Assembly: GCA_951804945.1 (NCBI GenBank)
Contig: OX638153.1
Span: 60,078,001 to 60,142,000, forward strand
Origin: Podarcis cretensis
Lineage: Eukaryota
Direction: 5' to 3'
Length of the DNA: 64,000 bases
Shown here piece after piece: positions 25,625 through 64,000 of this stretch. The stretch's first letter is position 1; every line of letters begins with the position of its first letter. A program made the translations under genes and the position numbers. The notes under the pieces are model-generated. The model did no database searches. It saw only the letters and a list, made by a program, of their open reading frames with translations, and had not been told where the DNA came from.

Positions 25625-25667
<43 letters not shown>
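25625..25667. repeat. (AAT)n microsatellite upstream of NKX2-3
   Basis: Direct reading. Confidence 0.95.
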
Positions 25668-26808
25668 TCCCAGTACGTAAGATCACGAGCTTAGCTTTGA
25701 AATGCCGCTTTCGCAGACTGTTTTATATCCATGTTATACAAGCCATCCAAGGTGGTGGCCATAACCACACATTGCAATAATACTCGCCTCTGGATATTAC
25801 CTGGATAATATTACTGCAACCTATTACTACTATTATTGCTACCTATTATTACTACTTCTACTAAACTCATGCATATCTCGTCCTAGGCCCACATTGGTAA
25901 TGCTGCGTCCTAGGGTTTGTCTTGCCAAAGGTATGTGAAAGACCTGCTTCTCCTCTCGGGCAGGTGACCGCCGGAAGAGACTTGGTGCTCCCTCCACAGG
26001 CCAGTTGCCAAGCGGATGTTGAATGTTATATTGGACAGATTATCTTGGCCCTGTCCCTATATTTACTGCGCCCCGCGACAGGACATCTCACCCCACGCAC
26101 CCCGCGCGCACACCTTCCCGCGTTTCCTTGGTCCCATTTGCCCCAAGAAAGGCGAGTTTCCTCTTGGGCCCTTTCCCCAAGGAGTTCCTTTTCTTTCAAT
26201 TCCTCCGAAGTTTAAAAAAAGAAAAACCGCGAGTGGTAAGTCCCCAAGGGACGAGATGGAGGTAGATCCGGAACCAGAGGAAGGGAAGGCATTGTCAGCG
26301 CTGTTGTCCAGGGAAAGGCGGAGCGGGGGGGTTGTCTAGCCATGGGGAGGGGTTGTGGGCTACCTCGGTTCGGACTCCCCCGTGGCGCGGATTTTTCTCC
26401 GCCTCCTCTCGCCCCCGACGGCTGTGCGCCAACCTGTGTGACCCGACGGCGTGGGCGCCTCGCGTAGCCTGCCTGTGCAGCCCAGCCTGCAGATTTCTCT
26501 TTCCGGCAGGGTCTCTCTGTGTGTGTGTCACTTAGGGGGCCGGCTCTAGGCTCCCCCGCCTTCCAATGGGGGCGCAGCCCGCGCCCCAGCCCGGCCCCTC
26601 CTCGCCGTGACGCGCCCGCCCTGGCCGCAGAGGCGGCTCCGAGTCCAGAGGCTGCAGCTGGTCGGCGCAGAGGCTGCGACTGCAAAGGCGGAGCGGCAGC
26701 CTTCCCTTCGCATGGACGCCCCTTAGCCGGGCTTGGCTGGCAGGGCGCGGCGCTCCTGCACCCAAGCCGGCTCGCTCCCCTCTTTCCCACGCACCCGCCC
26801 CCCTCCCA

Positions 26809-29579
26809 ATGATGCTCCCCAGCCCCGCCACCTCCACCCCCTTCTCGGTCAAGGATATTCTGAAACTGGAGCAGCAGAGTCTCGGGGGCTCCCTCGAGCC
26901 GCCCTTCCCCGTCGCCGCCGCCGCCGCCTCCTGCCTGCTGGGGTGCCGCAGCTTCTCCGACGGGGAGGACGACGACGAAGACGACGAGAAGCTGCCCTTC
27001 CTCAGCTCCATGGCGGCGACGGGGAAGAGCGCCGCGGATGGGGGGCTTTCCCCAGGGAGCTACGTGCAGGCGGTGCTGCGGGGCACCTGCGAGCCCAAGG
27101 CCCTGGCGGGAGAGGGAGAACCGGTGCTGGATTCCGGAGCCGGTGAGTACCAGCGAGAGCGGGATCAGGACCCCAAAAGGGAGGCATTATTGGGGAATCG
27201 TAGGGCCAGGCGGGCGCCCAAGTCCCTCTCGGAACGCGGAGCGATTCCCAATCTTTCACATTGCCAGGATAACTAATTCCGAAAGTTTCTCCTTCTGGAT
27301 CGCAGCGTGGTTGCGCGTGTGTGGCTTGGAACCACCGTTTCTCCAGCCAGATGGGATGCTGAAAGTGGGACACGCGACATCCGCGTCTCCAGGAGCACGT
27401 CGGTAACGGTCCAGCGCTGCTCAGAAGTGCTTGGGCACCGCCAAACCCAAGTCGCTTAGGCGGACGCCTCTTCCCTCCGCTGCAAAATATTTGTGGCTCC
27501 AACTAACAAAGAATAAGAGGATAAGTCCCTTGGAACTTTGAAAGACTTACTTCCGAGTAAACGTGCTTAGGCTGCTGTCCGCTCTACGCGTCTCTGAGCC
27601 TAAGCCTCCCTGAACACAACGGGACTTGCCATTGGGTAAAATGCACCGGACTGGGTGGTCACACTGCAGCCCTCTTCGTCTCGGATGTAAAATCTTGCTC
27701 AGTTAGTCCCGCTTCCCCATTGCAAGTTTGCCTCGGAGTGCCTCCTAATGCCCCTTACTTGAGAGCAGGTCCTGTGGACCTGGCTTACAAGAAAGCGTCC
27801 TCGGTTCAGCCGGAGACTTAGGCAGAAAGGGGACGACACGTTTGGCCACGCCGAGCCATCCACATCCCCAAACAGGCAAGGAACCGCTCTGAGGCCCAGC
27901 CTCGCAGCCTTGGTGGTCTGGCGGCCAGGAGAGCCGCCTTGGTGGAATGATGGTGCCGCTGGCTCCAGGCCCCCCTTAGGAAAGCCCCCAGGGTGAGGTG
28001 GAGCGGAGTGGGGCGGTCAAAGCGCGAGGGGATCTAGTTGGGGACCCTTCGCACCAAGGTTTTGTCCGAGGCGCGGCAAGCAAAGCTCTTGCTTGCGCTG
28101 TCAATCAGTAACGGGCCTGGCCTGGCTTCCCTCCCTCCCTGGAAGGGAGGAGATCGTGTTCGCACTGCGGGATCTTTGGGGGCATAAAGACTACCGTCTG
28201 CTTCCTAAATGGGCATAAATCCATTTCCCAAGTCCTTGCTTCCTTCCGGCTGCCGTAAGCAGTCCTGGTGGCACAAGGGGAAAACACACACACTTCGCTC
28301 CCGCAAGTTTTTCTCGAGTTGGCTGAGCTCCTGCAGAATGCCAGGCGGCGCTGGCTCCTTCGTTTGCAAGGCCGGGAAGCAGCGGCCATATTCCGTTGCG
28401 GAAGACTCAACTTTCTATATAATAATAGTAATACTATTACTATTAAAAATACTTGGCAAACCGTGTTTCTAACTTGCTCCGCCTTTCGAATTACAGGCGC
28501 GCTTTTCTGCTGCAGGCTTATTTTGCGGAAGAATAGTTTTGGGGTTGTTGCAGCTGTGTCTTTATGCCCTTTAAGGCTGCGGTTATACGCAGCCTTAACC
28601 TTAACCTGGGCGTAAGTCCCACTGAACAGAGCGGGACACTTCTGGGTTACCCTGCCTAGGAGTGCCCTGTAAGACACCGACGGAATTATCTTGTGACCTA
28701 GCATTCGGTGCATCAAAAAAGAAAACGAAAACAGATGTCGGCCCTTCCAGGTGCCCGCGCAGCGTGTTCTCTCCTCTCCCTTTAAATAATGTATTAATCT
28801 GTCTTGAGAAATGCGTAAATGAGAGGTTTCTGCAAGGTGATAAGGGGTGTGGGGGTGTCAATGTGTTGTACCGGTCCCTTGTACCACGAGCGAGCGCAGC
28901 ACGCAGCTCCCCGGTTCTTGACTGGAGCATCTCTCTCCGTTCCCCGTCCTCTGCAGGGAAGGAGCCCACGGAGGAGTCGTCGGAGCGGCCCAAGGCGCGC
29001 GGCCGGAGGAAGCCTCGGGTGCTCTTCTCGCAAGCGCAGGTCTTCGAGCTGGAGCGGCGCTTCCAGCAGCAGCGCTACCTGTCGGCCCCCGAGCGCGAGT
29101 TGCTGGCCAGCAGCCTCAAGCTCACGTCCACGCAGGTGAAGATCTGGTTCCAGAACCGACGCTACAAGTGCAAGCGGCAGCGGCAGGACAAGGCCCTCGA
29201 CCTGGGCGGCCCGACGGCGGGGATGCCTCCGCCCTCGCAGCAGCCTCCGCCTCCGCCGCGCAGGGTGGCCGTGCCCGTGCTGGTGAGGGACGGCAAGCCC
29301 TGCCTGGGCGGCTCGCAGGCCTACAGCGCGCCCTACAACGCCGCCGCCGCCGCCGCCTATCCTTATAATGGATTCCCCAACTACGCCTACGGCGGTTCCC
29401 CCGCGGCTGCTTACGGGGCCGGCTACGGCTGCAGCTACCCGGCGGCCAACAGCGGGGGCCCGTCGGTGCCGCCGCCTGCGGGGCCCTACATGAACATGGG
29501 CGGCTTCGCGGGCGGCGCGCAGCCCTTGCACCAGGGTCCCGCGGGGCCTTCCTGTAGTCAGGGCATCCGAGCTTGGTAG
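26809..29579 (+). CDS. NKX2-3: Homeobox protein Nkx-2.3; join(26809..27142,28957..29579), 318 aa
   Basis: TN/eh1 motif [13 protein letters not shown] in exon 1; phase-1 GT-AG intron (G|gtgagt at 27143, ctgcag|GG at 28956); NK2 homeodomain [20 protein letters not shown]...[13 protein letters not shown] (29004-29183, Tyr54); NK2-[17 protein letters not shown]; Tyr-rich region; C-terminal GIRAW; F14 and LASSLKL fit NKX2-3 rather than NKX2-5; synteny with SLC25A28/ENTPD7/COX15. Confidence 0.96.
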
Positions 29580-36060: not shown

Positions 36061-39000
36061 TCACTTCCCGGCCAAGCGTTCCTCCTTTCGCTTGGTAAGG
36101 ATGTATTTGAAGAACTCATACACAGACCAGGCAATGGCTGTGGAGGGCATCTGGTAAATGACACGTGCTTGTACCCCTCGAAAATAGGCAGTCAGCCCAC
36201 CCACGCGGTACACCGTCCTGAATGCATGAGCCATGCCTGTAATGTGCCCACTGATGTTGGTATTCAGTGCCAGGGCCTCCTGGGTATTCAGCAGTGTCTT
36301 GCAAACGTCCAATGGGGTGGTGGCAGCAGCAGCAATGGCCCCTGCACAGGCCCCTGCCACCATATGGGAACTAGGGTTGTACTGTCTGTGAGGATTGAGG
36401 TGTTCCTGCAAAGATTCATATGCCATGAAGTGGATGGCCTGGAAGGGGATGTTCATAGTCAGCTGAGTGGTGTAGCTTCGGTAGAAAGCTCCTGGCCCTT
36501 CATTGCACCATACAGCACGTACACAGTCTGTTGCTCGCTGGTATGGAGAGTTGTACATCTGCATTCTCTGCTTTACCACTGATCACAAGATGACAGCAGC
36601 AGCCCAGCCATGGAGACGAGAGAAGGGCAGGGAGGAGCAAAGAAAAAATGTATAAGTAAGTGCAGTGATCTGAACAGTGTGCATTCTACATAAACACTTT
36701 AATAGATTCAGGGGCCCCTGCATCCCTCAAACTTGCCTCAGTGTGATCTATCTACCCACCCAACAAATCCTGCAGAACTCCACAACTCATGAAAAAACAG
36801 TAATGCCCCAATTCTGGAATTGTGAGACACCAAGTAAAACGGGGGTTACTGAAATGTGATCTGATTATGCCTACACAATGTAGGGAACACAAATATGAAA
36901 GACAAGTTGCAATATTGTTTTTATGTCATTTTTCAACACCAAGAGCAAGGGCAGACACACAAATACCTTCTTTGCTTCAGCCAAAGTTTTGTCCACCACC
37001 CACCCGCTGCATCCAAAGAACCCTTGTAGCAGGTAAGGCTGCATGTCTGAACTGTATCACAAGCAACATGAAAGCACCCCCTGGTGACAAGAAGGGAGCA
37101 GCACAAGCTGCATGAAAGTTGCAGGACTGCTGGGAAGCAACATTACCTTCTGCTGGGTTCATGGCTGCATCATGAAGCAATGTTGCCACACAGCCTGCTG
37201 CGCCTGCAAAACAAGGACTATTACATGTGAAAAGTGGGAAGAAGACCTAAGGAGCTCTCACAATGTGCCACCGGAGGAGTGTATGCGAGCAAATAGGGAC
37301 ACCCCCCTCCCCAAGAGAGAATGAAAGTTCATTGAGAAGTTAGCATCAGTTTTCAGAAAGGGAATATCAGAAATATTCAAGGCTTCAGTGCAGGCAATAT
37401 TTATCATATTAATCTCGACCCACATTGGAAGGATTGGGGGGGGGGTCAGAAGACTAAGACTGCAATCCTAACTCCACTTACCTGGGAGTAAGTCCACTGA
37501 ATTAAATAGGACTTACTTCTGAGTAAACATGGTTAGGATTGCACTGTAAATTATCTATCATCTTTAATTCCTAGAGCAGAGAAGAGCCAAGACCGTCTTG
37601 CAGCTATTTAGGATTCTTGCAGCTATTTAGGATTCTTCCGCCATCCTGCTACACATCCAACAAGCTTCAGTCAGGTGAGTTAGTTCCAAAATTCTAGGAT
37701 CTCCAGCTAATTGGGTCTTCCTATTATCTGTCCAGACTATCAGAGATGAAGGAGCCTCAGAAGCATGCTAGTGTGAAAAAGTAAATATAAGCAGACCAGA
37801 CTCTACAACACGTTACAGCAAGCTTGGGGTTCTCCCCACTCAAAAATGAGGATGCTAAAAGGACAAATGTAAGAGCAGATACGAACATGAACATATCTGG
37901 GACAGCTGCTTCAAAGGAAGAGCACTATATAAAGTCAAAATGAAATACAAACAGCAACACACCCATTCTTCTATCATATTTCAAACTATCTTCACAATAC
38001 AGAAAGTTTGTCTGCTCTGGTGGAAACTGCAGCTATCTGCCCCATATTCCCACAATCCCTTCTCATTCACGAATTCCTTTCAAAAGTCAATGAGAAATCC
38101 TACATTCCTAATTATCATAGTTAGATAATGCTTGGAGTGAAGCAGAACACAGCATCAGGGAAGAATGTCAATAGTAAATAGGATTCAGAAGTTAGCAATA
38201 TTACAGCAGTAAGAAAGAAGACAGGAGTGCCTGGCGTGCTCTGGTCCATGGGGTCACGGACACGACTAAACAAGAAGAAGAAGAAGAAAGAACCAGGCAT
38301 CCAGTTCTTCATTTCACTAACAGTCCTAGCTGGGAACATAGGGACCCTCAGGGTGGGGCAAGGAGGCAAGAAGGGACAATACCGTTGGCCACGTGACTAT
38401 TGCCCCCAGCATGGATAATGTCGGTAAGTGTCTTTTTCAACTTTTCGTAGCAGGCGAAATACAAGGCATGAGCAGGGCCTGCCCCTGTGGCTGTGATGTT
38501 CAATCCACGCATGGGTCGCCAGATCCCTTCAGTCCGCACGATCCGCCACAGGGCCTCCAGCACATTCCGGTAGCGAGCAGCAGGTTCCGGTTGCAGGCTC
38601 TGCATCCTTGTCTGCCAGCGCAGGGAGGGGAGCAGGTTAGATATGCCAAGGGACTTAGCCTAGTAAGCGCTCCACACCCAGCTCTCCCAACCCAGGACAC
38701 TCCTTCCTTTCAGAGCCATTCAGCTGCATTTGATGGCTGCACACAAATGAGTGCTCGCAGGCGACCTTTGTAGGTGTCTGCAGATCACCAGAGGGCCTTC
38801 GCGTCTGCCAGGACTCTACCGTATGTACAACACCCCCACACACACCTTACCCCTTTCTCCCAACCCCATGACTGAGACCAAATATTTCTGGAACCAGGTC
38901 GGTCGCTTTGGCGGCAAAAGTGAAGGCCTGAAACGTGATCAAGGAAACCGATCTTGCTTCTTGTCAACTAGTGGCGGCAACACATAACTCTCCTGTCAAG

Positions 39001-39620
39001 TGATCGTTCGTTGGCACCTCTGCCATTAGCCAGCAAAAGAGCCGAGAACGTGTTTGATCCATCCCTCCCCGAAGTCGTTAGCTCCATCGCATTCATCGGG
39101 GGACACATCCTTCGCCTTTCTGTCAACTCTGCCCCCCCCCTTTTTGCTAAATTCGGATCTAGTCGGACCGTCCGGTGATGCGGATTAAAGTGCAACACTA
39201 ATGAAGATCGTGTGCCGGTTAAACGCTCTCAGGTCCTGCCCAGGGAGCCCCGCGTCTCGTCTCGTCTCCCCCCGACTCCCGCCAGCACCCGCCCTGCTCC
39301 CGGAGGCGCGAGAGCAGCTCGGCGCCCGTGCTCACCTTGACACAGTCCACCGGGTACATGAGGCTGTGCTCCAGCACCCCCGCCACAGCCCCTGCGAGCA
39401 TGTGGGTGGAGGCGGCGGAGCCCCGCGGGAGGGCCTCGTAGTCCGGCTCCGGGCCGGCCTCCGTGTCCGTGCCAGTCCCTCCCGCCCCGCCACCCCCCGC
39501 GGGCCACGCCCAACCCGCCCCTCCACCGTCGCCCCCGCCCAGCAGCAGGAGGAGCTGGCGGCCCGGCTCTGCCCCACCGCGCTGCCCGGGCCCCGCCGCG
39601 CCGCCCGCCCCGAGCTCCAT
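36061..39620 (-). CDS. SLC25A28: Mitoferrin-2 (mitochondrial iron carrier); complement(join(36061..36578,37147..37203,38383..38611,39336..39620)), 362 aa
   Basis: MELG start in strong Kozak context (GCCATGG); [24 protein letters not shown]|TRMQSLQP; carrier signatures [24 protein letters not shown]; ends [10 protein letters not shown]; all GT-AG junctions in frame (285+229+57+518=1089 nt). Confidence 0.97.
37461..37543. mobile_element. ~85-bp palindromic non-autonomous repeat (multi-copy family)
   Basis: TGCAATCCTAAC...GTTAGGATTGCA inverted ends with central gagtaagtcc-actgaa-ggacttactt; relatives at ~19710-19803, 27500-27575, 28587-28667, 41746-41818, 50895-50978, 55136-55224. Confidence 0.65.
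38220..38286 (+). mobile_element. RTE/BovB LINE extreme 3' fragment in SLC25A28 intron 2
   Basis: cctggcgtgctctggtccatggggtcacggacacgact resembles the BovB 3' end, with a (GAA)n tail and AAGAAAGAA on both flanks. Confidence 0.65.
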
Positions 39621-45029: not shown

Positions 45030-48000
45030 CCCTGCTCATCTGGCTGGGTTACCCCAGCCATTCATCAGATGCACACCAGCTTACCTTCAGCAGGTTCATT
45101 GCTGGACTTGGGACCAATGCTTGTGCCTCTTCTTTCAAGAGCAGAGCTGATCCTACAAGATGCATTTAGCTGCATGGCTTTTATTTTTTCAATGTGATGT
45201 GGATTGGACAGAACTTTCTTGTTGGGACAGACTACCAATTACTGTACTCAAATAATGTGACATTCAATGGCTCCTCTAGAACTCAGACCCTGATAAACTT
45301 CTTGTCCCACCTGACACAGTTCAGAGGGCCTGGCACTGCCTCAGCCATGGTAGTCCTACCACATGGCAGGCCTTGGGTCTTCCTGCTTCTCCTCTTCCTT
45401 TGCCCTTTCCTCCTTCCATGAATGCTGATTAACAGATGTAAACAAAGACTGATATAGTGGCTTATGCCTCAACTTTTGTGACCTGACCTGTCTGTGATAG
45501 GTCTGGCTTCTCCTCCCTCTTGGATTAGATGCAATTGTATCTGTGCATCTCTTGGCTCCTGTGTCCATGGGGAAATCCAACTGGAATACTTGGGGTGGTG
45601 CGTGGCATTTGTGAGAGCTGCTGCTCTAGCTGAGTGCCCAGGGAATCTATGCCCTCTTCTGCAAAAGTCAGGATGTTGGAACATTTGGCCCTGTGGCAGT
45701 TGGCCGTGGGATGGCCTTCTTCAAACCCTTGCTTTGTTCCACCGCTGCTGCTGCTGGGTGGGGGAAGCAGCAGAGGCTGTGCTGACTGAGCCAGAATTTC
45801 CTTCAGTGCAAGAAAGGGGAGCAGGATCAATAAAAACTGTGGTGGCATGAATTCTCTGTCTAATGGATCTGCAAAACCCACTAATTTGGTTAGCTTTCTT
45901 CTTAATGGCTGGACATGGTGTGGTCTCTCAGTCCTGTTTTCTGATTGCACCGATGAAATGGCACAAAGTGGGTAGGTTGGGATGTCTGCTTCAGTTCTCT
46001 GGTTCCTGGGGAGCTGAATCCAGTGCCTAAGGGGATTCCAATAACTTTCATCTGGTTTCTAGAAGGGGGAACGAGAGCCTCCGCAGGGACTAGATGCACA
46101 TGCTGGGTCAGCATCGCTTGAAGCATTTATGGAGAAGTGATATAGGCATTTTGTGTTCCTGTAATTCCTGTTATTGCTGTAGTGCAATAATAGACAGCCT
46201 CTGAAAGAGCAGAGCAGGCGTTTTATGGAATGCTGGATCTGCCTTTTTATTTTCTTTTAGGGGTGTGAAGACTGGTCTGGTCTCTAACTCTTAACTCCAA
46301 ATCTTCCTCATTCCCCTTGCAGGTACCTGGAACGGTTTCATACCTTGGAGGCAACGGACACAAATAACCCATCTCTGAATTACGGGGTGGTTATTGATTG
46401 CGGGAGCAGCGGGTCCCGAGTCTTTGTATACTTTTGGCCACCACACAATGGGAATCCGCACGACCTGCTGGACATCCGGCAGATGCGAGACCGTAACGGC
46501 CAGCCTGTTGTCAAGAAGATCAAGCCAGGTTTGGATATTTCCAAATGCCTTTTTTGTTGGTGGCTGTGAACCCACAAGCACCAAGCACCTGGAGGTGGGC
46601 AGAGTTGTTCTGTAGAGATGGCAGCTGAGGGAATATTCCCTTTTCATTGTACAGGGATCTCTACTCTGGCAGCCACTCCAGACAAAGCTAGTGACTACAT
46701 CAGGCCGCTGCTCAGCTTTGCTGCTGCCTATGTGCCCAGTACCAAGCACAAGGAGACTCCCCTCTACATTTTGTGTACTGCAGGAATGAGACTGCTGCCT
46801 GACTGGTGAGTGAGCTATATTTTTCCAAGACCTGAGCAGAGTAGGCTTGGGACTGGGGAGCAGGAAGTGCCGGGCCTCTTGGAGCTACAGATGGACTTGC
46901 ATCCTGAAGTGGAAAGGGACAGGGTGTGGGGTGTATCTTCACTGTAGCAGTCAAATACAACATTTCCTGTTTCCTAGAGTGGACACACAGGGGAATGTTG
47001 CTCCAGACAGGGAGGATTTCCTGTCATACCTGCTCTGGAGCATCCTCCCCCTGTGTGCGACCAGGTAGATGGGTGTGACCCTAGCAGACCCTATAAAAGG
47101 GCCAGTCACGCAGCCATCTTCCTCTTTTGCTGCTCTTTTGCGACTCCTCTGCTGGCTCTTAGCCAGCAGCACATGGCTCATTCTTACAGAGGATGGAAGC
47201 CACAAGGTAGAAAGTCTGAGGCCTAGCTCAGACTTCTTTTCTCTACAACTGTAACTGTGACTACAAAATAAAGCCTGCCTTCAGGACAATACTGTGAACT
47301 GAATGTAAGTAAACTTTATCATTACTTTTAAAAGAAGACTGTCATGTCATTATTCTTTTTATGAGGGAACTAAAGGGGAAATTTACCAGGAACAATCCAA
47401 TCTGGACAAGCCAGACTGGATTGCTCAATTCAAATGATTCTAACAAATCCATCAACTAGCTTACAGCAATGTGCAAGGGAATGTGCTCTGCTACTACTAC
47501 TAATAGTAATAATTTATTATTTCTACCCGCCCATCTGGCTGGGTTTCCCCACCCACTCTGGGTGGCTTTCAACAGAACATTAAAAACAGAATAAAACTTC
47601 AGACATTAAAAACTTCCCTAAACAGGGCTGCCTTCAGATGTCAAGGTGTTCCACTGGGTGGGCACCACTACCGAGAAGGCCCTCTTCCTGGTTCCCTGTA
47701 ACCTCACTTCTTGCAGTGAGGGAACCGCCAGAAGGCCCTCGGCGCTGGACCTCATTGTCCGGGCTGAACGATGGGGGTGGAGACTAGCTCACTAACGTGA
47801 GTGAGGAAGGATAATATTTAATCAATATATCCTCTCCTACTATCCACAACATTCCCACACAGGGTTCCCTAACTTGATAGTGAGCAATGGGTCATCTCCA
47901 CCCCAGGTGGACTAAAAATTAAGTCCTGCTTTTGAAGTTGTTGTGGGTGTTGGCAAATTTGTGGCAGGAAAGAGACCAAGTGAAAAGGGTGACTTGCACA

Positions 48001-48460
48001 GGGAGACAAAAGGATGGGATTTTGAAATGAGGTCAAGTCTGCTGTTTAGACATCTTGACCATTCGGCAAAGGAGCAGTGGAGAGGGGGGTCATTATATTT
48101 CAGTACAAAGAAAGGGAAGTTGCTCAGTTTGTCTGCTTGTGGATCTTCACAGGCAGCAGACGGCCATCCTGGCAGACCTGGTGAAGGATGTGCCCTTGGA
48201 ATTTGATTTCCTCTTCTCAGAATCACAGGCAGAAGTGATCTCTGGGAAGCAAGAAGGTAGGTGTTGGGCCAGAAAGGCTCGCTCACTCCATCATCACTGT
48301 GATGAGGCTGCATTTTAATGTTTCAATATTTTAATGCTGTATTTTAATCTTGTTTTTAAGTTGTATTCATTCAACTTGTTTTTATTATTGCTTGTTAGCT
48401 GCCCTGAGCCCGGCCTTGGCTGGGGCGGGCGATGTATAAATAAATAAATAAATTATTATT

Positions 48461-48493
<33 letters not shown>

Positions 48494-51400
48494 TTAGGGA
48501 GTTTGGCAAAGGGTGAAGGGAGAGAGGGGGGAAGGTAGGTAGTGAGGCAGCACTGCGCAGGATCTGGGGGCTTAGCTAGCTGTTACACCAGCTTAACTTG
48601 CTGTTGGCGGTGCCTGTCCCTTGGGGTTGTTCCCTCCCCTCAAACTTCACAGGGTGCTACTCAAGTCCTGTACCTTCAAGGAACCCAAAACTGCTTTTGA
48701 TTCTCTTTCTCCCCCACCCCCACCCCCCAATTTCCCAGGAGTCTATTCTTGGATAGGCATCAACTTTGTATTGGGAAGATTTGACCACGAAGAAGGTGAG
48801 ACTGCGGGAAAGGGACAGTGGAGTTGAATGGGTAGGTAGAAGTTTTCTCTTTTGGCTCAGTTCCCTCTTGAGGGAGGGAATCTCCAGCACAGTTTGCTCG
48901 ATTCCCAGCAGGAATGGAGATTTGGCTTTCCCACATGACCTGAACTAAGGCCCCTTCCCATTCTGCAGTTTAGCAGGAGTGAAGGTGAGCAAGAGAGACT
49001 AGAGCGGATCCCCACTTCTTCCCTAACTTCTGCCCCCCCCCCGCCCCCCAAACCCTAGACATTTCTAGTGTTCAGCCTAAGAAGTATGGGGATGTGCCAT
49101 CTTCCATCTCCATTGCTTTGGAAACTCACTCTTTCTCTTTCTCTTTCTCTTTCTCTTTCTCTTTCTCTTTCTCTTTCTCTTTCTCTCCCTCCCTCTGGGA
49201 TTGTAGAGGAAGATGCAGTGATTTCTGTGACCCTGGCTGGCCAGGAAGAAACCCTGGTGCGAAAGAGGACTGTTGGGATCCTTGACATGGGAGGTGCCTC
49301 TCTGCAAATCGCCTATGAGGTGCCGACTTCCACGTCCTTCTCTTCCCCGCAGGAGGTGTGTAGTTTGGGAAGGAAATATGTGCTATGGTCCAGGTTGGGC
49401 ACTGTTTCTTACTCCTGCTCTCCCCCCCCCCCCCCGCCACTCTCCCCTCTGCTACCGACAGGAGGAAGCTGCCAAGAGCCTGCTTGCTGATTTCAACCTT
49501 GGCTGTGACATGCAACACACGAAGCACGTGTACCGAGTCTACGTCAGCACCTTCCTGGGCTTTGGGGGCAACTACGCCCGGCAGCGCTATGAAGAGCTGG
49601 TGCTGAATCAGACCACCACCCGCAACAGGTGATGTCCTCATGCTGCCAGGTTTCAAAAGGTCTGGCTAAAGGCAGCTCTGGATTCCACTGCCCCCAGGAG
49701 TTCAAGGTGTGGCATCCTGGGAGAGGGTGTGTGTTTATTTGTAGGAGGCAGGCTCCCTGAGTGATGAGATCAATGGGAGAAGTTTTTGATGGTCCGTATG
49801 CATACCTCTAGCCTGTTTCGGGGTGGCACAGAAGAACTCACTGATCATAACTTGCCGCTGGGGATGTCTGTGTTTTCCCAACCCTGAAGCTTACGCTCTC
49901 GTTGCAGGTTGCAGGGTGAGCAGCTTGGCGCAAATGCTGGGGTGCCCGTCTTGGACCCCTGCCTGCCTGTGGGACTGGAGGATGTTGTGGAGCATGGCGG
50001 ACAGACCCTGCACATCAAGGGCCAGGGGGACTGGCAGTCGTGCGCGAAGCAAGTGCGCCTCCTGCTGGCGGGAGACAACAGAACCACGGTGTCTCTGCGC
50101 AACACCTATCAGGCACCAATTGACTTTGTTAACAGCGAATTCTATGGGTTCTCTGAATTCTACTACTGCACCGAAGATGTGCTGCGCCTGGGAGGACTGT
50201 ACCACATGCCCACGTTCACACGCGCTGCCCAGGTGACTCTAGAATATGTGATCACTTTGCCAGGATAGGGGGTGTTGTTTCTGTGCCCACTCATGTCTTT
50301 TGCCTCCTTCCAGGATTTTTGCAGCCTGAGCTGGTCCTTATTGACCCAGAGGTTCCGAGACCACCTATACTCAGCACATGCAGATCTGCACCGTGTCAAG
50401 TAAGAATACATTCTTCCTTTTCACAGAGAATGTGCTTGGTCCTCAACTCTTCTTCCATGGACGGTGAAGGGGTGGGGGTAAGATTGCCCCCCAGCAGTCT
50501 TCTCAACTGATGAGCCTCAGTCCAGCGTATTTGTGATTGAGTCTCTATGCTCTGCTTGCAGGTACCAGTGCTTTAAATCAGCATGGATGCACCAAGTCCT
50601 ACACGAAGGCTTTCATTTCCCCAAGGATTATTCTGGTCTGCGCACAGCCCAGTTGGTGTATGATCGTGAGGTACAATGGACACTGGGAGCCATTCTCTAT
50701 AAAACTCGCTTTCTGCCACTCAGGTAACCTAAATTGCTGCCCACTACATGTTTTCTCATCTTAAGAGTGGTAGAGTTCTTTTGCTTACTTCAGAATCAGT
50801 CTTTCAAACAAGGTCTTCAGTAAAGAACTGGACCATGGCACTTGACTAGGAGTAAAATGCCTGTTTTCTAGCCCTAATTAGAGTGTTCAGTCATCTTAAT
50901 ATGTGAACTTGGGAGTAAGCCTCACAGAGTTCAACATGAGGAGGGCTTACTCTCAATAAGTATGCATAGGATTGAGCTTGAAACATGGAGGAGTTGAGTA
51001 CTCTGTGTTTAGTCTGAAGTTGCATTTTTTTAAACTTGAGAAAGCAAGTGATCTGCCAGCAGTGCTTTTCTGAAAAAAAACAGAGGAGAAAGCAGAGGCA
51101 TGCAGAGACCTGGTATGTTTTTAAGAGGTACCTAAAGGAGAGACATTAAATGCACCCTCAATGAAGCACAGAGCCTGCGTGAAAAGGAAGTTGATCCTTT
51201 ATCAGTAGGCAACATGCTGTCTTAAACCGTTAAAAAACTAAACCTATGTTTTTGACACCTCTCATCTATTTACAAATGGTCTGTAGGGCATAGGCCTGAG
51301 AAAAGCCAGGTATTTGGGAATCATACTTAACTGCAGTATCTGGAATGCTTCTGTCTGCTAGTTGCAAGAGATTCAAGCTTAGCGCAGCTTCACATTTTAA

Positions 51401-51658
51401 CTTCAGACTGATTTTTCTTTGTTTTTCAGGGATCTCCGCCAGGAGAGCATCCACCAACCTCGCAGCCCTTGGCTCCGTCTCTCCTTTGTTTATAACCACT
51501 ACCTTTTCTTTGTGTGCATTCTTGTGGTGATGCTTGCAATTGGACTCTACCTCTTCCGTCTGCGCCGCATCCACCAGAAGCAGTTGCACGTGGCACAGCT
51601 GGACCTGCTGTGGCTAGCAGAAGTGGTGCCGCTGCCAGCACAGGAGGCAGCCTCCTGA
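40872..51658 (+). CDS. ENTPD7: Ectonucleoside triphosphate diphosphohydrolase 7 (LALP1); join(40872..40879,42151..42330,46323..46528,46655..46805,48153..48256,48739..48795,49207..49355,49462..49628,49908..50232,50314..50399,50562..50723,51430..51658), 607 aa
   Basis: MAR|ISFSCLCPASW N-terminus; apyrase conserved regions DCGSSGSR, LCTAGMRLL, KQEGVYSWIGINF, DMGGASLQ, WTLG; N- and C-terminal TM helices; all GT-AG junctions phase-consistent, total 1824 nt. Confidence 0.96.
44981..45028. repeat. (AAT)n microsatellite
   Basis: Direct reading. Confidence 0.95.
46996..47475 (+). mobile_element. Probable solo LTR in an ENTPD7 intron
   Basis: TG...CA ends with GGGGAA/AGGGAA flanks, TATAAAA (47092-47098), AATAAA (47267-47272) and three short hairpins. 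Confidence 0.5.
49129..49186. repeat. (CTCTTT)n hexamer microsatellite
   Basis: Direct reading; lies just upstream of the ENTPD7 acceptor at 49206. Confidence 0.95.
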
Positions 51659-53044: not shown

Positions 53045-53236
53045 GCTTACACCACCTGGATAGTTTACTGAAGTGCTCCTTGTCAGGAAACACAGACCAC
53101 TTTTGATTTTAGCCCAATACCAATTAGATGCTATGGATAGAGGCTGGAGTATTACCCTGGCTGAATTTCAAGCACTTCTGGGCCCCATATCAGATGCCTT
53201 TAACAAAAGACAAAGAAAGATCACATACTAAAAAAA

Positions 53237-53742
53237 TTTATTTTCACGATACCAGTTTACACTCAATAAATACAAATACACAACATTATAAATAATAGTG
53301 GAAGGGGGAATTCTAGGCAAATGCATCCTAGTGCAGCAGCCTCACTGCTAATGGACAAAGATAGGGAGAGAACAGATTTATTGGGTGAGCATCACCATGT
53401 AAAAGTAAGGAAGGTGTCTTGTATCTTGCCCAAGAGGGTGTTCCAGAGCTCCATCAGCAATTATTCAATCTTAGCGTTTATTACAGGACTTTCAAAATGC
53501 AAACATTTTCCCTAACTGCCAAGAGAGGAATATTTAGTTACAACATCAAACCCAAGAGCAGATGCCACCAAGATGCATCAATTAAAACAGGTGGGAGATG
53601 GTTAAACAAGTGAAATGGTCCCTTCATATGTTTGGGTCTTAGCCCTATGCTGTGGGGAAATTTAGAGTGCAAACAAAAGATCCATTGAGTTAGTACTGGA
53701 AAGGACAAGGGGTGGAGCTGTTATCTAGCATCAGAAGGAAGC
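53237..53742 (-). other. ATP6V0E2: Probable non-coding last exon (3' UTR) of ATP6V0E2
   Basis: Donor cag|gtactt at 54236/54235, 28 nt after the stop; strong acceptor tttttctctttttcctag| at 53743; minus-strand AATAAA at 53477-82, 53377-82, 53237-42. Confidence 0.6.
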
Positions 53743-54263
53743 CTAGGAAAAAGAGAAAAAGATTTCTTAGTATTGACCTTACCCCAGCAGGATAGAAGAT
53801 ATCTGGGAACAATCAACCTGTTGCCCTTTCAGTGAGATTTACCATAGCTACCTTTTACATACAATGAGAAAGTGACCTGTCCTATAGAACCACAGAGTGG
53901 CAACACTATTGGAGACAGATTACAGGTACCTTTCTGGTTCTATTGGTTAAGCCAGGGATGGGACCTGTGATTCTCATGTGGCTGGACTATGATCCCTGAC
54001 TGGCTATACTGGCTTGGGCTAATAGGAGTTAGAATCCAATAATATCTAGAGAACCATAAGTTCCCCATCCCTGGGCAATGCCGTTGACATGTGAGTCAGG
54101 CAAGGAACCCGGGATGGGAATCTTTGTAAACTGGAAGCAAATAGATTCCTTGTTCTTACAAGCAATTAATGAGTTGCATCTAATTTATTTGTGTGTTAGT
54201 AAGGTAGGTTAGGTAGCGCTAGATAGAGAAAGTACCTGTTGAATTGGTTGATAGTGGTGCAGT

Positions 54264-55656
54264 TCACTCCCACAGGAAGCGCACATACCAGATGGTCTCA
54301 TTCTTCAGCTGGGGTCCAAACAGCGGGTTGGCCTGGGCCAGGAGTGCTATAAGCCAGCTGCAAGGGAAAGATAGGAAGGAGACATATAAACTGGATCACA
54401 ACTCCTTTTGCACTAGTGCTGAAATACAAAAAGTCATATTTTGCAAGTAACTGCTAGGTCATTTTTGCAAGTAACAGTTATTCATATAAAGAGGACAGTG
54501 TCACTGTAGGAGGGATATACAATCTAGGGAGCAAGGTCTTCTAGTTCTTTAAAGGAGATAAGATCTGCCCTGGTGCATTATGCCTGAGAGTGTGTAGCTT
54601 AGCATAACAGCTGAGCCAGACAGGATGTTAGGGCAGCTAGAACAGTCTAGTGCTTTGGTGTATGATCAGAGATGGTCTAAGGCTTGTTATGGGATGCAAA
54701 ATCCACTACTTGTTCATATATGGGGTCCTGGGAGCATCATGCATGAATGATGCTAGGACATATTGGAAGAGACAGTGTACCATGATCCAAGATTACCCAA
54801 AAGCTTATGAAAGAGAGGCAGGCTGTTATATGCACCTATGCGTAGAATAAGGACCTGGCAACTGTGAAGCAACTTGAGTATCTCCAAGGTGGTATATACA
54901 GGAGAGCTGCTTCTATTTGGGATTCCTACCTAGATTCCCAATATTCATGAAGCAGCCACTTAGATAAAGTTATGAGGGTGGTTGGTTTCCTGCTGGGTAC
55001 AACCCAGCCCTACACCCACAACCCATCTCCCCTATGCAATACTCACAAGAGATAGCAGGAAATGGCTGTAGTCACCAACATGGTAATAATTACTCTGTGA
55101 AGTGAAAAAATGAAAAAGAAAAAAGATTGAGTAAAGCTGCAAGCCTAACCCTACTTACCTGAGAGTAAACCCCACTGAATATATTAGGAATTACTTCTGA
55201 GTAGACATGGATAGGATTGTGCTGAAACAGTCAAGCAGGTCACACAGGAGAAAGGATTCCCAGATCAGGCACTCCTCAACGCTCTTCCTCCCTGCTCCCA
55301 CACCTGGACTCCTATATACCATGTTCATAAGAGAAAAATACCCTAGCCCAGCCCTTTGGCTGCTATACTAGTTTGCAGCCAGGGTCGCTGGTGTTTCCAA
55401 CGCGAGGTAGCACTCATAAATGTGATTCCCCCCCACTTGGCAGTCTGAAGCGATGCAGAGTCCCCTGTTCACAGCATCCGTAGATCAGGCCTCCTTCAAG
55501 GCCAAAGGCGGCTGCGGAGAAGGAAAGCCTGCGAGTGTCGCACCTGCGGGGGAAGCGGGTGCTGGTCCCTGCTAAGATTTTGTGTGTGTCATGTCATCTC
55601 CCAATATATCAATATCTCTATATAGTGATCTTTTTGGATATATAGGTCATTCTCAC

Positions 55657-55687
<31 letters not shown>

Positions 55688-55975
55688 GTCAATCAATCAA
55701 TCAATCAATCAATCATCTATCTAGATATATTCTCAAAGCCTTTAGCAAGGACCACCATCACCCTTCCCTCGCAATTATAGATCACAATGCATATATTGAT
55801 CTATTTGGCGATGACCGAGAGACCTGGCGACGGATCGGGCGGGCGGAGGCTGCGCGGGCGGGGAGCCTCACCCGCGGTTGGGCCCCTTGGGCACGAGCCA
55901 CGGCCCGGCGATTCCCACGAGCCCCCAGAAGACGGAGAAGAGGATGATCGGCAGCGCGAAGCTGTGCGCCGTCAT
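54264..55975 (-). CDS. ATP6V0E2: V-type proton ATPase subunit e (e2-type); complement(join(54264..54357,55047..55094,55872..55975)), 81 aa
   Basis: Spliced translation [81 protein letters not shown]; the MTAHSFALP start and WYVRFLWE end match e2 as I recall it, not e1; canonical GT-AG junctions (104+48+94=246 nt); own CpG island at 55800-56250. Confidence 0.92.
55658..55722. repeat. Compound (TATC)n/(AATC)n microsatellite in ATP6V0E2 intron 1
   Basis: Direct reading. Confidence 0.9.
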
Positions 55976-57312
55976 AGCGAGGCGGGTTGGGAGCGACCGA
56001 CGGGATGAAGGACAAGAGGCCGCCGTCGAAACCGCAAGAAGAGTGAGTCTCCGCTCCTCCCCCTGTCTCTTCCTTCGCTTCTGGTCCGGTCCGCAACCAA
56101 TCAGAACTCCGTGCGCCCCCCCTGGTGTTTCCCCCCCCCCCTTCGCCACCCCGTATTTTGGAGCCTCGGTTCCGAATGGAGCTGCCTGTGTCATACCGCC
56201 CCCTGCTGCCTCGGAGGGTGTATTGCGAGGAGCGGAGAAGGCAGGTCGAATCCTACTAGAGCTGTTGCAGGCATAGGCATCGTATAGGCGTCCACTGGGG
56301 TTGGGGTAGTTGCTCCCTCTAATGATCCATGATCACCAGATTTACAGGTTTCTACTCCCCACCCCCACCCCCGCTCTACAGAAAGGTTATAAAATTTGTA
56401 GACCCAGATATGAACAAAAATGTGCAGGCACCAATCTTCACCTCTATTTTGTGAGAAAACTTACCCCTCCAACCTTTCAGGGTTTCTATCCATTTTAGAC
56501 CATTTCTATACTACTTAAAATATACAAAAAATCCTCTAAGTGGTGTACAGAAAACAAGCTGATCAGAAAATTTTATGAATATGATGTTATGTATAAAAAT
56601 GTTGCATTAGTGCAACTTTACTAATACACAGAAACCAGTATCAGTTCCTTCTCCTTCTGTCACCCATTCCCTCTCAGTATCCTGGCTCTCACTAAGCTCA
56701 TTCATTGGTTTCTAGCTAATGAATGAAGCAATGGATGACATTAAAGAAACTAGATCTAGCCAATTTAATACTTGAGTGAAACACCTGTGTCTCCGCTCTT
56801 GGTTTGGTTTAAAGCATCTTAAGCCGGTCTTCACTGCTGGTGAAGTGAATGCTACCCCACTGAAAACAAGTCAGGTATCCAATACTGGCAAGTAATGTAT
56901 AAAAGAAAAATGTAGCAGTAAAGACAGTAAGTAGTCCATCATCTTTCAAAGTCACATTTCATAGCAAAAAATGTCCCCCCACTCCCCCGCATCTGCAAAC
57001 ACTTTAAAAGATACTCTGCTGACAACCTGCCATAATTATACCAATATTGAAGCAGGCCGGGCTGGGGCTGATTTCATGTTAGGCTCATTTTGCTGAGAGG
57101 CAGCGGTAGGGAACTGCAGTAGTGTAGTACAACTCTGAATTGTAGGGTACATGATAGGGCCTTTTAGGGAAATGAAGCAAAGTGGGAGACTGTGATGTTG
57201 AGTGCAGCAGCACTGCCCAGGAAAGAATTAAGGGCTTCAGCAATGAGTGAAAAGCCATCTACCCATTGTAGCAGGTCAACCCACTGAGAAGGAAAGGGAT
57301 AGATGTGTAATA

Positions 57313-58405: not shown

Positions 58406-61400
58406 TTATTTCGGGATCCGCTTCAGTTCATGCATCAGCCACAATGCCACACTGAGCAATACCAGGGAACCTGATTGATGAGTGGCTGCTAAAGGAGTTG
58501 GGACATACAGGAGAAGTGTGCTGATGCCCAGGGTAACCTGCAGAGGAGCAAGAATAAAAGGAAGTTTCAGATGTAAGCAAAGTTTGCTTATCAATGAAAT
58601 GTAGAAGTACAGTATGTGCAACTACATTGTATTCCAATCGCACAGAATTATACACAAGAAGCTTCATAAGCAATTGGTACGGGGATTTTTATATGTTTTG
58701 TCTCTCTCCCACTGTAAATAACTTGCTACAGGATGAGGTAGCTGTCACAGTGCTTCATGATACAATGCTTCCCCATTTGCCATCTCAGTTTAAACCCAGA
58801 AGGCAGAGAAGGGCAGTGACCATAGCACTGTTCAATATTTCCAAAGAAGAGCATGACTGCAGCTCTATTTCCCCCCCCCCTTTGTTCTTCAAAGCCAAAT
58901 AAATAAATAAATAAAAATTGGTCCCCACCAATTTCAGTTTTAACTGCCTGAGACCAGCAACCAAGATAGCATTATCAGTGACAAGAAGGCAGGCACCTAC
59001 CTGGAAGGAAGGGGAAACTTGCCATTCCATCAGAGGACACTACTAAGTGACAATTAAAAGGGTGTTTTAAAGGGCATAGTTAATACCTGGAGGTATGCCA
59101 CAGCCAGTAAGGAAGCAACTGCCATCCTTGTCCTCCGTGGGAGAGGAATCTTCCTGGAAAACAGGTACAGACCTGTAATGGCTGCAACAGAGGAAACTCC
59201 CTAAAGGGAAAAGAGTAAATATCCAGTGAGGGAACCAGAGAAGCTTTGCAATGACAACAAAGAAAGGGCTTAGAAGTGGAGTTGGAAGGGATCTTAAAAG
59301 GTCATCTAGTCCAAAGGCAATGCAGGAACCTCACTACTACAGCATCCCTGACCATCCAGCCTCTGAAAAAGAGTCGATCACTTCTGGGGCAGTCTGCTCC
59401 TCTTTCAAACAACTCATGTCATCATAATGTTGTCCTTAATGTTTAGACTAACCCCGCCCCCTTTTGTAACTTGCACCCTTTAATTAGAGACAGTGGAGAT
59501 GGAAACCAGTACTTTAGGCATGTAAGCAAGTGCTCTACTCTGAGTTAAGAGTGTGCCTTCCCACACTCCCAGTTACACTGCCACCTGGAATGAACACAAA
59601 CCCAAGAACAGCAAACCAATTAAAAAGAGGTGTTATCTAAGAGCATAAAGAGGAAGAAACATACCAGAATCCTGTGATCAAACTGCACGGTTGTGGGATT
59701 CTCAAATATGTTCTTCAACTTTGGGGAAAAGGCAAGGAGGTCATCAGGGATCCAGCGTTCCCCCATCTTGGGAAATGAATTGTATACAAGACCAGCATCC
59801 AGTCCTGCCACAAATGCCCCTAGAGTTCCAGAGAAGAGAGTCTGTCACACCTGGAAGTATGAATGTAATAGAACAAGCCACCTAAAAACCATCACGGTGA
59901 GTGTTTCAGGTTCTTCCCTCAAGGCCACAAAACAGTTCCCAGTGATGTTGTCTGACCAGCATGAAGAGGAAGCATTTCAGTAACCTGGAACTGAAAAAGT
60001 CTAGACCCTCCCAATGGGAAATGAAGCAAGAAACACACATCCCTGACCATGCTGCCTATTGCTTCTCAAAAGAAAGAGATTGGTGCAAAAGTGACAGGGA
60101 CTTTTACCTGAGAGGGCAGTGAGAAAGATCAGGCCTGATGTTCCATGAGCAAACCTTCTTAGGCGCAGGAGTTGACGGGTTTCTGGTAACTGTCAAAACA
60201 GGAGGAGGATCACAAGAATATGTAATGGCCTTTTTATATATTCTAAAGGGAGTATGTGCAAAGGAAACTAGTGTTCCATAGGGTCAGCATATATACACAT
60301 TTCCAATAAGATGCCTGACTGAAGAGGAACTTATTTATTTCTCTCTCAATGGCTAATGCAGCAAGGACTTCTGCTCTTCTCACTCAGCTGTTATGCTGCA
60401 CGGCCCTTAATGGACATGGCTTACATCCAATTATATCTATGAACCCAAATCTACCAAATTTTATAGAAATCACCAGGCGTTCTTGGAAGCAGTCAGATAG
60501 CATCTGCATGCTTGATTTAATCCTGCTGTCAAGTCACCATACCCAAGACCAGATCCACAGGCCCCAGAAGCATCTACTGCCTGGATGTGTAGGGCAAAAG
60601 TGCATGGCAATATCTTCTGTGGCAGGGATGCGGCCTTGCTAGAACTGGGAAAGTTGTGGCAGACTGCACTGTAAGAAATGGAATAGCTCATGCCAGGCTG
60701 AATTCTTCTCAGTCTGCATTTCTCCTGCTATGCTTTCTTAAATAACTACCCTCTTAAGAGGCCATCCTACCAAGTGAACTATGAGAGTGCAGTGTTGTGT
60801 GGGCTCTCCTTTCTTCCCTTTTCGTGTGATGCTCCGAAGCAGTGGCTGTGATCACCATAAAGGGATTTGAAACCCTACCTGAGAAGTGAAACCCTACCTA
60901 ATATGAGAATTGGCAACAGGCGCTAGTTTTGCATGTGATGCAGGAGTGTGTGCCTCCCACTGCAACTTCATTGGCTCCCTCTATGCATGGGAGTGTCAGT
61001 GCTAACAGAGTTCTTGACTGGTAAGCTTTGGTGGTGTTTCCAGGAACGTTATCTCTTTGACATTTCCCAAGATTTGTAATTTTCCTCTTCCAGGCTGAGC
61101 ACATGTAGGATACAGTGGCAGTTTGGTCTGCACAGTGGCAGTGCGCCTCCCTCCAAAGGCGCAATTGGTGTACAGGCTTTCTTGGCCCAACTGGGACTCC
61201 ATACATGCCCCCGGTCTGCCTCACTTTTCACTTACCTTGTGCTGCGGCAGCAGTAATGAAAGTCCAGTCCACAGGCTGTAGCAGTAAAGAACAAGTGCAG
61301 AGCCCAGGTGTGCGGCTAGACGGTACTGACTGACCCGTGGGATATCATGAGAGTCTGGCTTTTCCTCTAATCCACTTTTTACCATATACCAGCCCAATAG

Positions 61401-62856
61401 GCCCTGCCAAAACAAAGAAAAAGTACCATAGAGGCATGAAACTAAGACCACTTTTGCTCCTGCCAATATCATGTACATTCTCTTCCAAGGAACTAAGATC
61501 TAACAACACTCCAAGCACCATGATCTGAAGCTTCTGCTGGGCTTCTGTGCACCAGAGACCTAAGATCACATACAAATCAGCTCCTGAAGCGTGCAAAGGA
61601 TCAATGCCTTTCATGTTCTATCTCAGTTATCTTGGGCAGAGTAATTTAATGAGTCATTTAACAATTTCAAGGTCCCAGTGATCTTTCCCACCTGGAAGCA
61701 GACAAGTCCACAGAGGGCAACGACACGACCCTTCAGGGACCGGTTGAGGTAACCCTTCCTCCAGAAGTAAGCTGCTGGAAGGATGTAAGCCAGTCCAACA
61801 AGCCGTCCCCACATTCGGTGTGAATACTCCATGTACCAGATGAATTTGAACTCTGTCAGCGTCATGTTGTGGTTCAGGCTGTTAAGATTCAGAGAGAAGG
61901 TTTATAAAACAACAACAAACCCTGCAGTAAGGTGTAGTTGCCCATTCCCCTCTTTCCTTGACAAGTTCTATCAAGAAGTAGCATTTAAGATACTCTTTTT
62001 TTCTCATTTCCCTTTTGCTGGGATAGAAGACTAGGCTCCCCCCACGACCACCAATTTAAATTTAGTCTCTAGGAACTTTAGCTCAACCCATGCCTACATT
62101 TTAAATTCTGGGAATTGCTGGTAGTTTTGGAATTCTGCTTCCCACTCCTGCTGTGTCCGAGGAGGCTTCATCTCCCGCACGAGATGCCAGTCAACCATTG
62201 AAAGCCCAGACTCTGTCAGCCTGAAAAGGAAAGAACAGCAATGACATACCACTGGGGGAAGGTGCTATCAATGTGGGATATAATGGTGTGTGCATGTGTA
62301 TCCATCTATCTAGAAAAGCAGAATGAAGACACAATGGGAAAATTTAGACACTGGGGGCAATGCAGATGCAAATTCTGACTACACACAAAACATACCGCAA
62401 AACATACCGGTCATCAATTTGATGCAAATATATATTGTTTATCTACAATGCATTTATAAAATAAGGGTAGACACAGGCATTCAAAGGGCAGAGAGATACC
62501 AGAAGTTAGGTTAGGCCCAAACACTGGCATGACCAAGAGGAAGCAATGCACTTAGGAAGATCTCTGCTGGTTGCAGAAAGATACAATCTATGACAGCTGG
62601 AGAACCATAGTGTCAAGGGTAAATAAAATATAGTAAAGGCTTGAAGAGGAGGTGATAATTTTCCTTACCTAGTGACTCCACCCAACACCACAGCTCCGGC
62701 CACAGTCCCACTGCATATTAGAAGCCAGCGCCCTACAGCCCGGTTGGTCACAGCATTGGGGACAGGTGGTACCACCACTCTGGGATGGGAAGCAACTTCT
62801 GACACTACGCTGTGTTGTGACCGTCTCTGTGGGAGCTGCCACCACCGTTGACATTG
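58406..62856 (-). CDS. COX15: Heme A synthase COX15, 5'-partial (exons 2-9); complement(join(58406..58537,59087..59200,59665..59819,60108..60189,61236..61403,61692..61878,62098..62220,62669..62856))
   Basis: [22 protein letters not shown]|[53 protein letters not shown]...ELKRIPK*; conserved heme-ligand His motifs; GT-AG junctions in frame; exon 1 not identified inside the window. Confidence 0.96.
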
Positions 62857-64000
62857 CTGAAGACAGAGAAGGTAGTGAGGAGGCTGTTTGTAATTATGCC
62901 ACCCCACTAAACATACATTTGCAATTCAAGATATGGAAGAGGAGAATTACTCAAGATGAATGAACTCTCTTTACTGTAAAGAGTTCACACCTGTGTTCAC
63001 TACATCAGAAAGGTTGTATTCAGTGCCAGACATTATTCTACAAAATGCAAGGACAAGGATAAAGGACCAGATCATCAATGGTGCAAGCACAGAAAAACTG
63101 GACAACAGGAATTCACTGAGATGCTCAGCAAAACTTATTTTTATTTTCAATATGTTCATATGTGTCCTGCTTGTGGAATATGCAGAAGCATTTGGCTGGC
63201 CACCATTAGCAGGTTTTCATATGTTATTAAAACGCTGAAAGCATATGGAGGGGAAAGTGTTCATGTTTTTACAGGGCCTGTGTCCATGTAATAAAATGTG
63301 ATGTTATATTCATAACTGTTATTTTATTTGTTTAAAACATGTATACACTACTCTTCATCTAGGTGGGACCAGAGTAGTTCATGGTATAGAACCTTAAAAA
63401 AAAATCCTTTGAAACATTATACCTCTTGTTAAAGTTATAAATAAAGAGAGAGAAAGCCTGCAACTTACACATTTAACTGGTGCACATTTAGCTATACACG
63501 CTTGGCAATTAAAAAAATAATTAAAAAGAGACCAAGTGTCCAAGGAAAAAGACTTTGGCAATCCCAACTGCCATTGAACCTAATGTGTTTTGACTATCTG
63601 TGAATTATGATTTCGGCATGATTCCCAGAATGTAACCCACATAGGTTGAGGGCTTACTGTAGGTATACAAGTGAAATATTTTGGCAGTCACCGAAGCTCC
63701 TAGAGAAACAAGTTTTCAGTCTGCTCCCTTTAACTGTCTGGTTGTGACAGGTGCAGACAATAGAGTCTGTAGTTTTCTTGAATATCCACCCATAATTAGT
63801 GTTCCCCACGTGGAAATGAGGTAGCATTGATTAGCACCTCCCACAGTGCAAAGGATACATAAAGGCGGAAACTCCTGGCATTTTCCCCAGCAGCGTCTCT
63901 TAGCGAGCGTGATAGCAGGTACGCAGCCTGCTCGCAAGGCTAAGAAACGAGGAGCCGCGGGGGGTCGCTTCGTTTTGCAACCATCGGCCGACAGAGGCAT

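Follow-up and report, generated by a model that had tools for sequence, protein, structure and literature searches.

A complete ATP6V0E2 gene, which encodes isoform e2 of vacuolar-type ATPase (V-ATPase) subunit e, was found beside ENTPD7 in 64,000 nucleotides (nt) of DNA from the lizard Podarcis cretensis (GenBank assembly GCA_951804945.1, contig OX638153.1, positions 60,078,001 to 60,142,000, forward strand; this whole stretch is called the window, and positions in it are counted from its first letter). We hold with high confidence that the gene is intact, that its position beside ENTPD7 is likely ancestral for jawed vertebrates, and that the block around it was doubled, with a later move of the gene in mammals. 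The paralogon is already published (PMC12019251) and the gene is already annotated, and little here is new. The useful remainder is the mammalian move, which can be read from public annotation and which indicates that human gene order can hide a genuine genome-duplication pair.

The gene lies on the minus strand in three coding exons. Exon 1 carries the ATG, codons 1–35 and a GT donor in its coding part (55872..55975, 104 nt). Exon 2 (55047..55094, 48 nt) has AG and GT ends, keeps the frame, and matches in size and place exon 2 of ATP6V0E1 (e1) on C2 of this genome. Exon 3 (54236..54357) holds 94 coding nt including the stop (54357–54264, stop codon 54266–54264), 28 nt of 3' untranslated region and a predicted donor, placed after the stop because of the sequence signal and a like intron in e1. 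The GT-AG introns measure 777 and 689 nt, and the spliced frame of 246 nt encodes 81 amino acids with no internal stop. Pseudogene status was ruled out, the frame being without stops, frameshifts or broken splice sites. The product is identical at 81/81 residues to the RefSeq 'V-type proton ATPase subunit e 2' of Podarcis muralis/Lacerta agilis (P0133), and the gene structure is therefore not due to chance. The original prediction of a complete, intron-containing gene for an 81-residue e subunit was borne out.

Family membership was assessed by profile and hydropathy. Exon 1 alone scored 25.4 bits against PF05493, above the cut-off of 25, and exon 3 scored 21.7 bits, below that cut-off (profile region 44–62). 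The hydropathy profile gave two peaks above 2.0, with hydrophobic stretches at about residues 1–28 and 34–60, in keeping with the roughly 80 residues and two membrane helices of subunit e; a sequon is present at N70. The top homologs of exon 1 carried e2 names, and phmmer against solved chains placed mammalian V-ATPase e2 first (E 2e-47, vs 8e-37 for e1). Subunit e is required for V-ATPase pump function. On the basis of 86–88% identity to mammalian e2, a role in V0 is proposed for the lizard protein, which would be expected to be packed against subunit a and to form a fixed component of the pump.

A midpoint-rooted tree was built from 43 proteins over 81 columns (25 named e2, 17 named e1 and the window protein), the 42 database rows having been picked from several hundred as full-length and spread over vertebrates. 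The e1 and e2 sides were split at 100/99, with the window protein inside e2 and grouped with sauropsid e2 (96/94); an e2-type rather than e1-type protein had been predicted. Human, mouse, cow, dunnart, echidna, caecilian and frog sequences fell in a tetrapod e2 group (92/90) whose internal order was not resolved; ray-finned fish branched next outside it, followed by cartilaginous fish. Each side holds cartilaginous fish (shark, skate), gar, bowfin and tetrapods, and the two paralogs were therefore already distinct when sharks and bony fish diverged.

By sequence comparison, mammalian ATP6V0E2 is the ortholog of the window gene. The original prediction had allowed that the lizard gene might be a distinct e-subunit paralog, which is contradicted by the grouping of mammalian, amphibian and sauropsid e2. 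A subtler form of that idea, in which mammalian ATP6V0E2 and the reptile gene stem from two ancient paralogs with reciprocal loss, is very unlikely. It could draw on residue 61 (Ala in sauropsid and ray-finned fish e2, Leu in mammals and e1) and on the tetrapod e2 node, which at 92/90 is short of starred support. Against it, identity to the window protein is 69–71/81 for mammalian e2 and about 46–56/81 for e1, mammalian e2 branches together with the amphibian and sauropsid sequences, on an e2 side that follows the order from fish to tetrapods, and the e2 of a caecilian, whose accession lies 6 from that of COX15, clusters with whale e2 (90%). No second e2 was found in the lizard genome in searches with exon 1 and the whole protein.

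Positions of e2 in four non-mammals were taken from a 2025 study of NK4 genes (PMC12019251), whose Fig. 1A legend names atp6v0e1/2 and crebrf/rfl in the NKX2-3/NKX2-5 (NK4) microsynteny. In its Supplementary Data 2, ATP6V0E2 lies 675 bp from ENTPD7 on chicken chr6 and 2,228 bp from ENTPD7 on Xenopus chr7, and the order on gar LG5 and zebra shark chr20 is entpd7, crebrfl, atp6v0e2. For human and mouse the table shows no e2 at the NKX2-3 locus. The position beside ENTPD7 is likely ancestral for jawed vertebrates, as had been proposed; absence from this locus in other non-mammals, which would have pointed the other way, was not the pattern in these four species. The converse, an ancestral 7q36-type site from which the gene was relocated in squamates, is barely conceivable: no support for it was found, the chicken, Xenopus, gar and zebra shark positions in the NKX2-3 block (PMC12019251) refute it, and in turtles, a caecilian, frogs, holosteans and rays e2 and COX15 lie on sequences of the same length.

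This last comparison was made by proxy. For each protein record the length of the chromosome or scaffold behind it was noted, and the values for e2 and COX15 were compared in the 23 species where they could be assigned. The lengths agreed in 19/19 non-mammals (9 squamates, 2 turtles, 3 amphibians, 2 holosteans and 3 rays), where agreement denotes a common chromosome or scaffold, not adjacency, and where 9 of the 19 e2 values came from records pooled over 2–3 contigs, the value that matched being the one assigned. Agreement was 0/4 in mammals (echidna, dunnart, pangolin and field mouse) and 0/8 in the control comparison of e1 with COX15. Species whose e2 record was pooled over several species were omitted (Anolis sagrei, two Thamnophis, Python, Gopherus evgoodei, Hemitrygon, Mobula hypostoma, Atractosteus, Sarcophilus, lacertids and birds), as was Capra, whose e2 and COX15 records derive from separate assemblies. 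None of the omitted non-mammal rows contradicted linkage, and Sarcophilus agreed with dunnart; in birds the value 152,777,856 was common to e2 and COX15, with an e2 species that could not be assigned.

Close accession numbers tend to mark close genes. The gap between e2 and COX15 accessions was 2–14 in five snakes, a tortoise and a caecilian, 50–78 in three rays and 11,752 in echidna. Sturgeons gave a further view of the older gene order, separate from that of PMC12019251: two gene models fuse e2 to a downstream CREBRF-like basic leucine zipper (bZIP) gene, and in sterlet e2 and the CREBRF-like gene have consecutive accessions on a single contig of 293,550 bases. The sturgeon CREBRF-like proteins (P0333-P0336) are 64–84% identical to lizard CREBRF at the bZIP end. 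The table of PMC12019251 gives a CREBRF-like gene for gar and zebra shark and none for chicken or frog.

Human e2 has been placed on chromosome 7, as the original prediction stated (chr7:149,872,968-149,880,713; PMC6276090), with ZNF862 and ACTR3C/LRRC61 as flanks and the GIMAP cluster as a marker of the 7q36.1 neighbourhood (PMC8606216). In the lizard genome 18 of 19 GIMAP matches fell on C12, where no e match was found. In human, ENTPD7 and COX15 presumably abut. Matched by sequence length, echidna e2 falls on chr13 and COX15 on chr3 (chromosome names from the supplement of PMC11710854). In dunnart the longest sequence of the e2 record (316.8 Mb) is shorter than that of COX15 (684.6 Mb). With the placental records, the link between e2 and COX15 is therefore broken in all three mammalian lines sampled. 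The earlier claim that mammalian e2 left this locus is upheld by the human and mouse rows without e2 and by the contrast of 0/4 mammals with 19/19 non-mammals.

Sixteen mammalian-type isoform records were set against the full-length human e2 sequence. Four go out of frame or carry an insertion after residue 35, three end at 35, one skips 36–51, one breaks after 51, four break at 73–74 and three were uninformative. The breaks at 35/36 and 51/52 coincide with the lizard intron positions, and the break at 73–74 also occurs in a Rhineura isoform. Introns appear to have been retained in mammalian e2, and the move therefore points to DNA rather than to a retrocopy; mammalian e2 likely moved as intron-bearing DNA on the mammalian stem. 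That mammalian e2 is instead a retrocopy which replaced its parent at the old site is highly improbable. The family does yield retrocopies (two intronless e1 pseudogenes in this genome), and one small gene left while its neighbours stayed, but the intron loss of a retrogene is not seen in the isoforms, as read from proteins, and human e2 spans 7.7 kb for an 81-residue product (PMC6276090).

A single move of the whole intron-bearing gene on the mammalian stem, before monotremes and therians split and with the neighbours left behind, is the most economical account and in our judgement fairly probable. The supplements of PMC8081666 do not give the position of the monotreme e2 gene. Literature searches, partly weak in that the gene name was not required and mostly outside subscription papers, found no paper stating a move of mammalian e2.

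The sister block was located in the same genome. Searches with exon 1 and the whole protein (12 candidates scored) gave four e loci: e2 in the window, e1 on C2 and two intronless e1 pseudogenes. Only two of these bear introns, and only the window locus is of e2 type. The C2 block contains e1 at 52.300 Mb (+), CREBRF at 52.333 (+), BNIP1 at 52.35 (+), an NKX2-5-type homeobox at 52.381 (-), 81 kb from e1, and an STC2-type gene at 52.44–52.45 (-). Read from the NK4 gene, both blocks run from NK4 (+) to the e gene (-), with order and orientation alike, and e1 and e2 have in common their intron positions and coding exon sizes of 104, 48 and 94 nt. CREBRF was found genome-wide only as the C2 gene. 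A third block, on C15, has stanniocalcin, NKX3-1-type, SLC25A37-type and ENTPD4-type genes; on it no match to an e gene or relic was better than E 0.095, and no CREBRF match was found.

The intronless loci on C17 and at C5:55.96 Mb were considered as further paralogs and rejected, both being e1 copies with an in-frame stop. These processed pseudogenes (C17:8,969,100-8,969,420 and C5:55,958,350-55,958,680) are 93% and 87% identical to spliced e1, and their shared changes suggest a common source.

Two features expected of ohnologs were observed for e1 and e2. Both copies occur in cartilaginous and in bony vertebrates, and their paralogous neighbours lie in order, with NK4 and e genes in both lizard blocks and CREBRF or CREBRF-like genes beside e1 or e2 in gar, shark and sturgeon. 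In lancelet, CREBRF, ENTPD4 and BNIP1 adjoin on Chr3, the NK4 chromosome, where the table shows no e gene (PMC12019251). In the NK4 tree of that study, nkx2.3/2.6 parted from nkx2.5/2.5l at the first duplication round, and NKX2-5, NKX2-6 and NKX2-3 form one ohnolog family in PMC8040251, whose supplement on families of three and four members has no ATP6V0E among the rows listed. The original prediction had named NKX2-3 with ATP6V0E2 and NKX2-5 with ATP6V0E1 as sister segments of vertebrate genome duplication. The shared paralogon stands, but it is the NKX2-6/SLC25A37/ENTPD4 segment that is the closest sister to the NKX2-3 segment (PMC12019251).

We infer the following history. An ancestral block with NK4, SLC25A28/37, ENTPD4/7, BNIP1, CREBRF and ATP6V0E was duplicated early in vertebrate evolution, with the first round as the probable date. 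NKX2-5, BNIP1, CREBRF and e1 stayed on one copy, and NKX2-3, SLC25A28, ENTPD7, CREBRF-like and e2 on the other. Loss of CREBRF-like in tetrapods brought e2 up against ENTPD7. Mammalian e2 then probably left the block with its introns, through a copy followed by loss of the old gene or through a small translocation, and it now lies among SSPO, ZNF862, LRRC61 and the GIMAPs.

Several points weigh against this history. The thorny skate and zebrafish rows of PMC12019251 list no e2, and its lancelet entries list no e gene. The length proxy speaks to common sequences only, with pooled records among its values, and the Pelobates accession gap of about 700 makes COX15 an unsafe neighbour outside amniotes and the caecilian. 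Echidna e2 was placed by chromosome, not by flanking genes, so that e2 and COX15 may there have been parted by a chromosome break or by an independent move. The tree has no invertebrate or lamprey sequences and leaves 17 of 40 inner branches open at 81 columns; the root and the duplication round therefore come from PMC12019251.

The echidna placement and the lack of a pre-duplication outgroup, together with a C15 block that has neither an e gene nor a CREBRF match, could be taken to favour a different account, in which the position is old and e1 and e2 arose by segmental duplication of a CREBRF-ATP6V0E pair apart from the genome doublings, or mammalian e2 moved more than once. We regard this as unlikely. 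The e/CREBRF pair has NK4 and further paired families beside it in each block, both in sharks and in bony vertebrates, and the lancelet neighbours on the NK4 chromosome (PMC12019251) and the single NK4 ohnolog family (PMC8040251) also count against it.

If a single stem move is true, it is a dated single-gene DNA move that hides the e1/e2 ohnolog pair from human-anchored lists. On the same condition, e2 may have gained new regulation near SSPO, with a bearing on its narrower expression in mammals, which the review PMC6276090 describes as limited to kidney and brain. Reptiles and birds, with e2 at the old site, and mammals, with e2 at the new one, offer a natural test of whether relocation altered the expression of a housekeeping-type gene.

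Beyond the stop, an untranslated exon 4 is predicted at 53237..53741 on the minus strand (acceptor at 53742; AATAAA at 53482, 53382 and 53242), with a likely 3' end at 53237, from splice signals and one of the three AATAAA motifs. When about 53512–53429 is translated, 19 of 28 residues (counted by eye) agree with the alternative tail of the Rhineura isoform P0003 of e2; this would be indirect support for exon 4. Codon 74 of exon 3 offers a possible internal donor, and a second acceptor lies within the predicted exon 4 (53515–53429). P0003 and four mammalian models break at codon 74 and run into longer C-termini; in this lizard a stop comes immediately after the second acceptor. Post-stop introns are predicted in both paralogs, 28 nt past the stop in e2 (54235–53742) and 34 nt past it in e1 (C2:52,310,852). 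Nonsense-mediated decay generally follows a 50-nt rule, by which both introns may be close enough to the stop to escape it. Intron 1 of e2 contains a compound tetranucleotide microsatellite (55660–55720).

The promoter and exon 1 are covered by a CpG island (55780..56300; GC 0.64, observed/expected CpG 0.92), and a putative CCAAT box stands at 56097..56101 on the plus strand, reversed relative to the gene and 126 nt upstream of the ATG; the island and the box at 56097 had both been predicted, and the box proved to be inverted. In e2 and in e1 (C2:52,300,177) a reversed CCAAT with a common 8-base context starts exactly 126 nt before the ATG, and in each gene it is the sole one within 220 nt. 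This layout, noticed post hoc, may be an old promoter feature or chance.

Neighbouring genes were named from Pfam matches and from gene order against the table of PMC12019251. An NKX2-3-type homeobox gene (26611..29579, +) has two open frames with a Homeodomain (PF00046) and is 87% identical to the NKX2-5-type homeodomain on C2. An SLC25A28-type mitochondrial carrier follows (36061..39620, -; PF00153, three frames), and then ENTPD7-type coding exons (46288..51658, +; PF01150, GDA1_CD39, four frames), whose span has no mapped 5' end and whose stop ends at 51658; both have C15 paralogs. On the other side of e2 are COX15 coding exons (58406..62859, -; PF02628, eight exon matches to P0166, stop 58408–58406), whose span has no mapped first exon. 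With stops located on both sides, e2 sits between ENTPD7 and COX15 as predicted. No CREBRF-like relic was detected in the window at E<1, including the 1.6 kb gap between ENTPD7 and e2 (51659–53236), and no NKX3-3-type homeobox was seen beside NKX2-3, in agreement with the amniote loss reported in PMC12019251. Around NKX2-3 the DNA is CpG-rich over some 15 kb (17001–32500), far beyond the gene itself, a common trait of developmental regulators.

NKX2-6 may have been lost in this lizard. In C15:42,740,001-43,010,000, which spans 270 kb without N, none was found between stanniocalcin (42.779–42.792 Mb) and the NKX3-1-type gene (42.850 Mb), and a genome-wide homeodomain search gave none at E<=1e-18 (150 of 182 candidates scored). 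The gene is present at the matching site in human, mouse, chicken, frog and gar (PMC12019251), and the main text of a study of squamate gene loss (PMC13005343) does not name it.

The closest known protein is mammalian ATP6V0E2 (PDB 6vq6_e, 6xbw_e), which the window protein resembles in its 81 residues, termini and sequon, with 71/81 identical to human e2. It differs at residue 61, which is Ala as in other sauropsids, and the human gene lies at a 7q36.1-type site whereas the window gene lies in the NKX2-3 block. ATP6V0E1, beside CREBRF, BNIP1 and NKX2-5, has the exon sizes, early post-stop intron, CpG island and reversed CCAAT of e2; it differs in its separate clade, its longer introns and, in the lizard, Ser at residue 70 without a sequon. 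Relative to the NK4 microsynteny of PMC12019251, the lizard order NKX2-3, SLC25A28, ENTPD7, ATP6V0E2 is that of the chicken and frog rows, and the sister block with CREBRF and ATP6V0E1 is also present. In one gar entry of that table, atp6v0e1 is on the strand opposite crebrf, unlike in the other species. Within the main text atp6v0e occurs a single time, in the legend, and the fate of mammalian e2 is not taken up; the table has no squamate, turtle, marsupial or monotreme.

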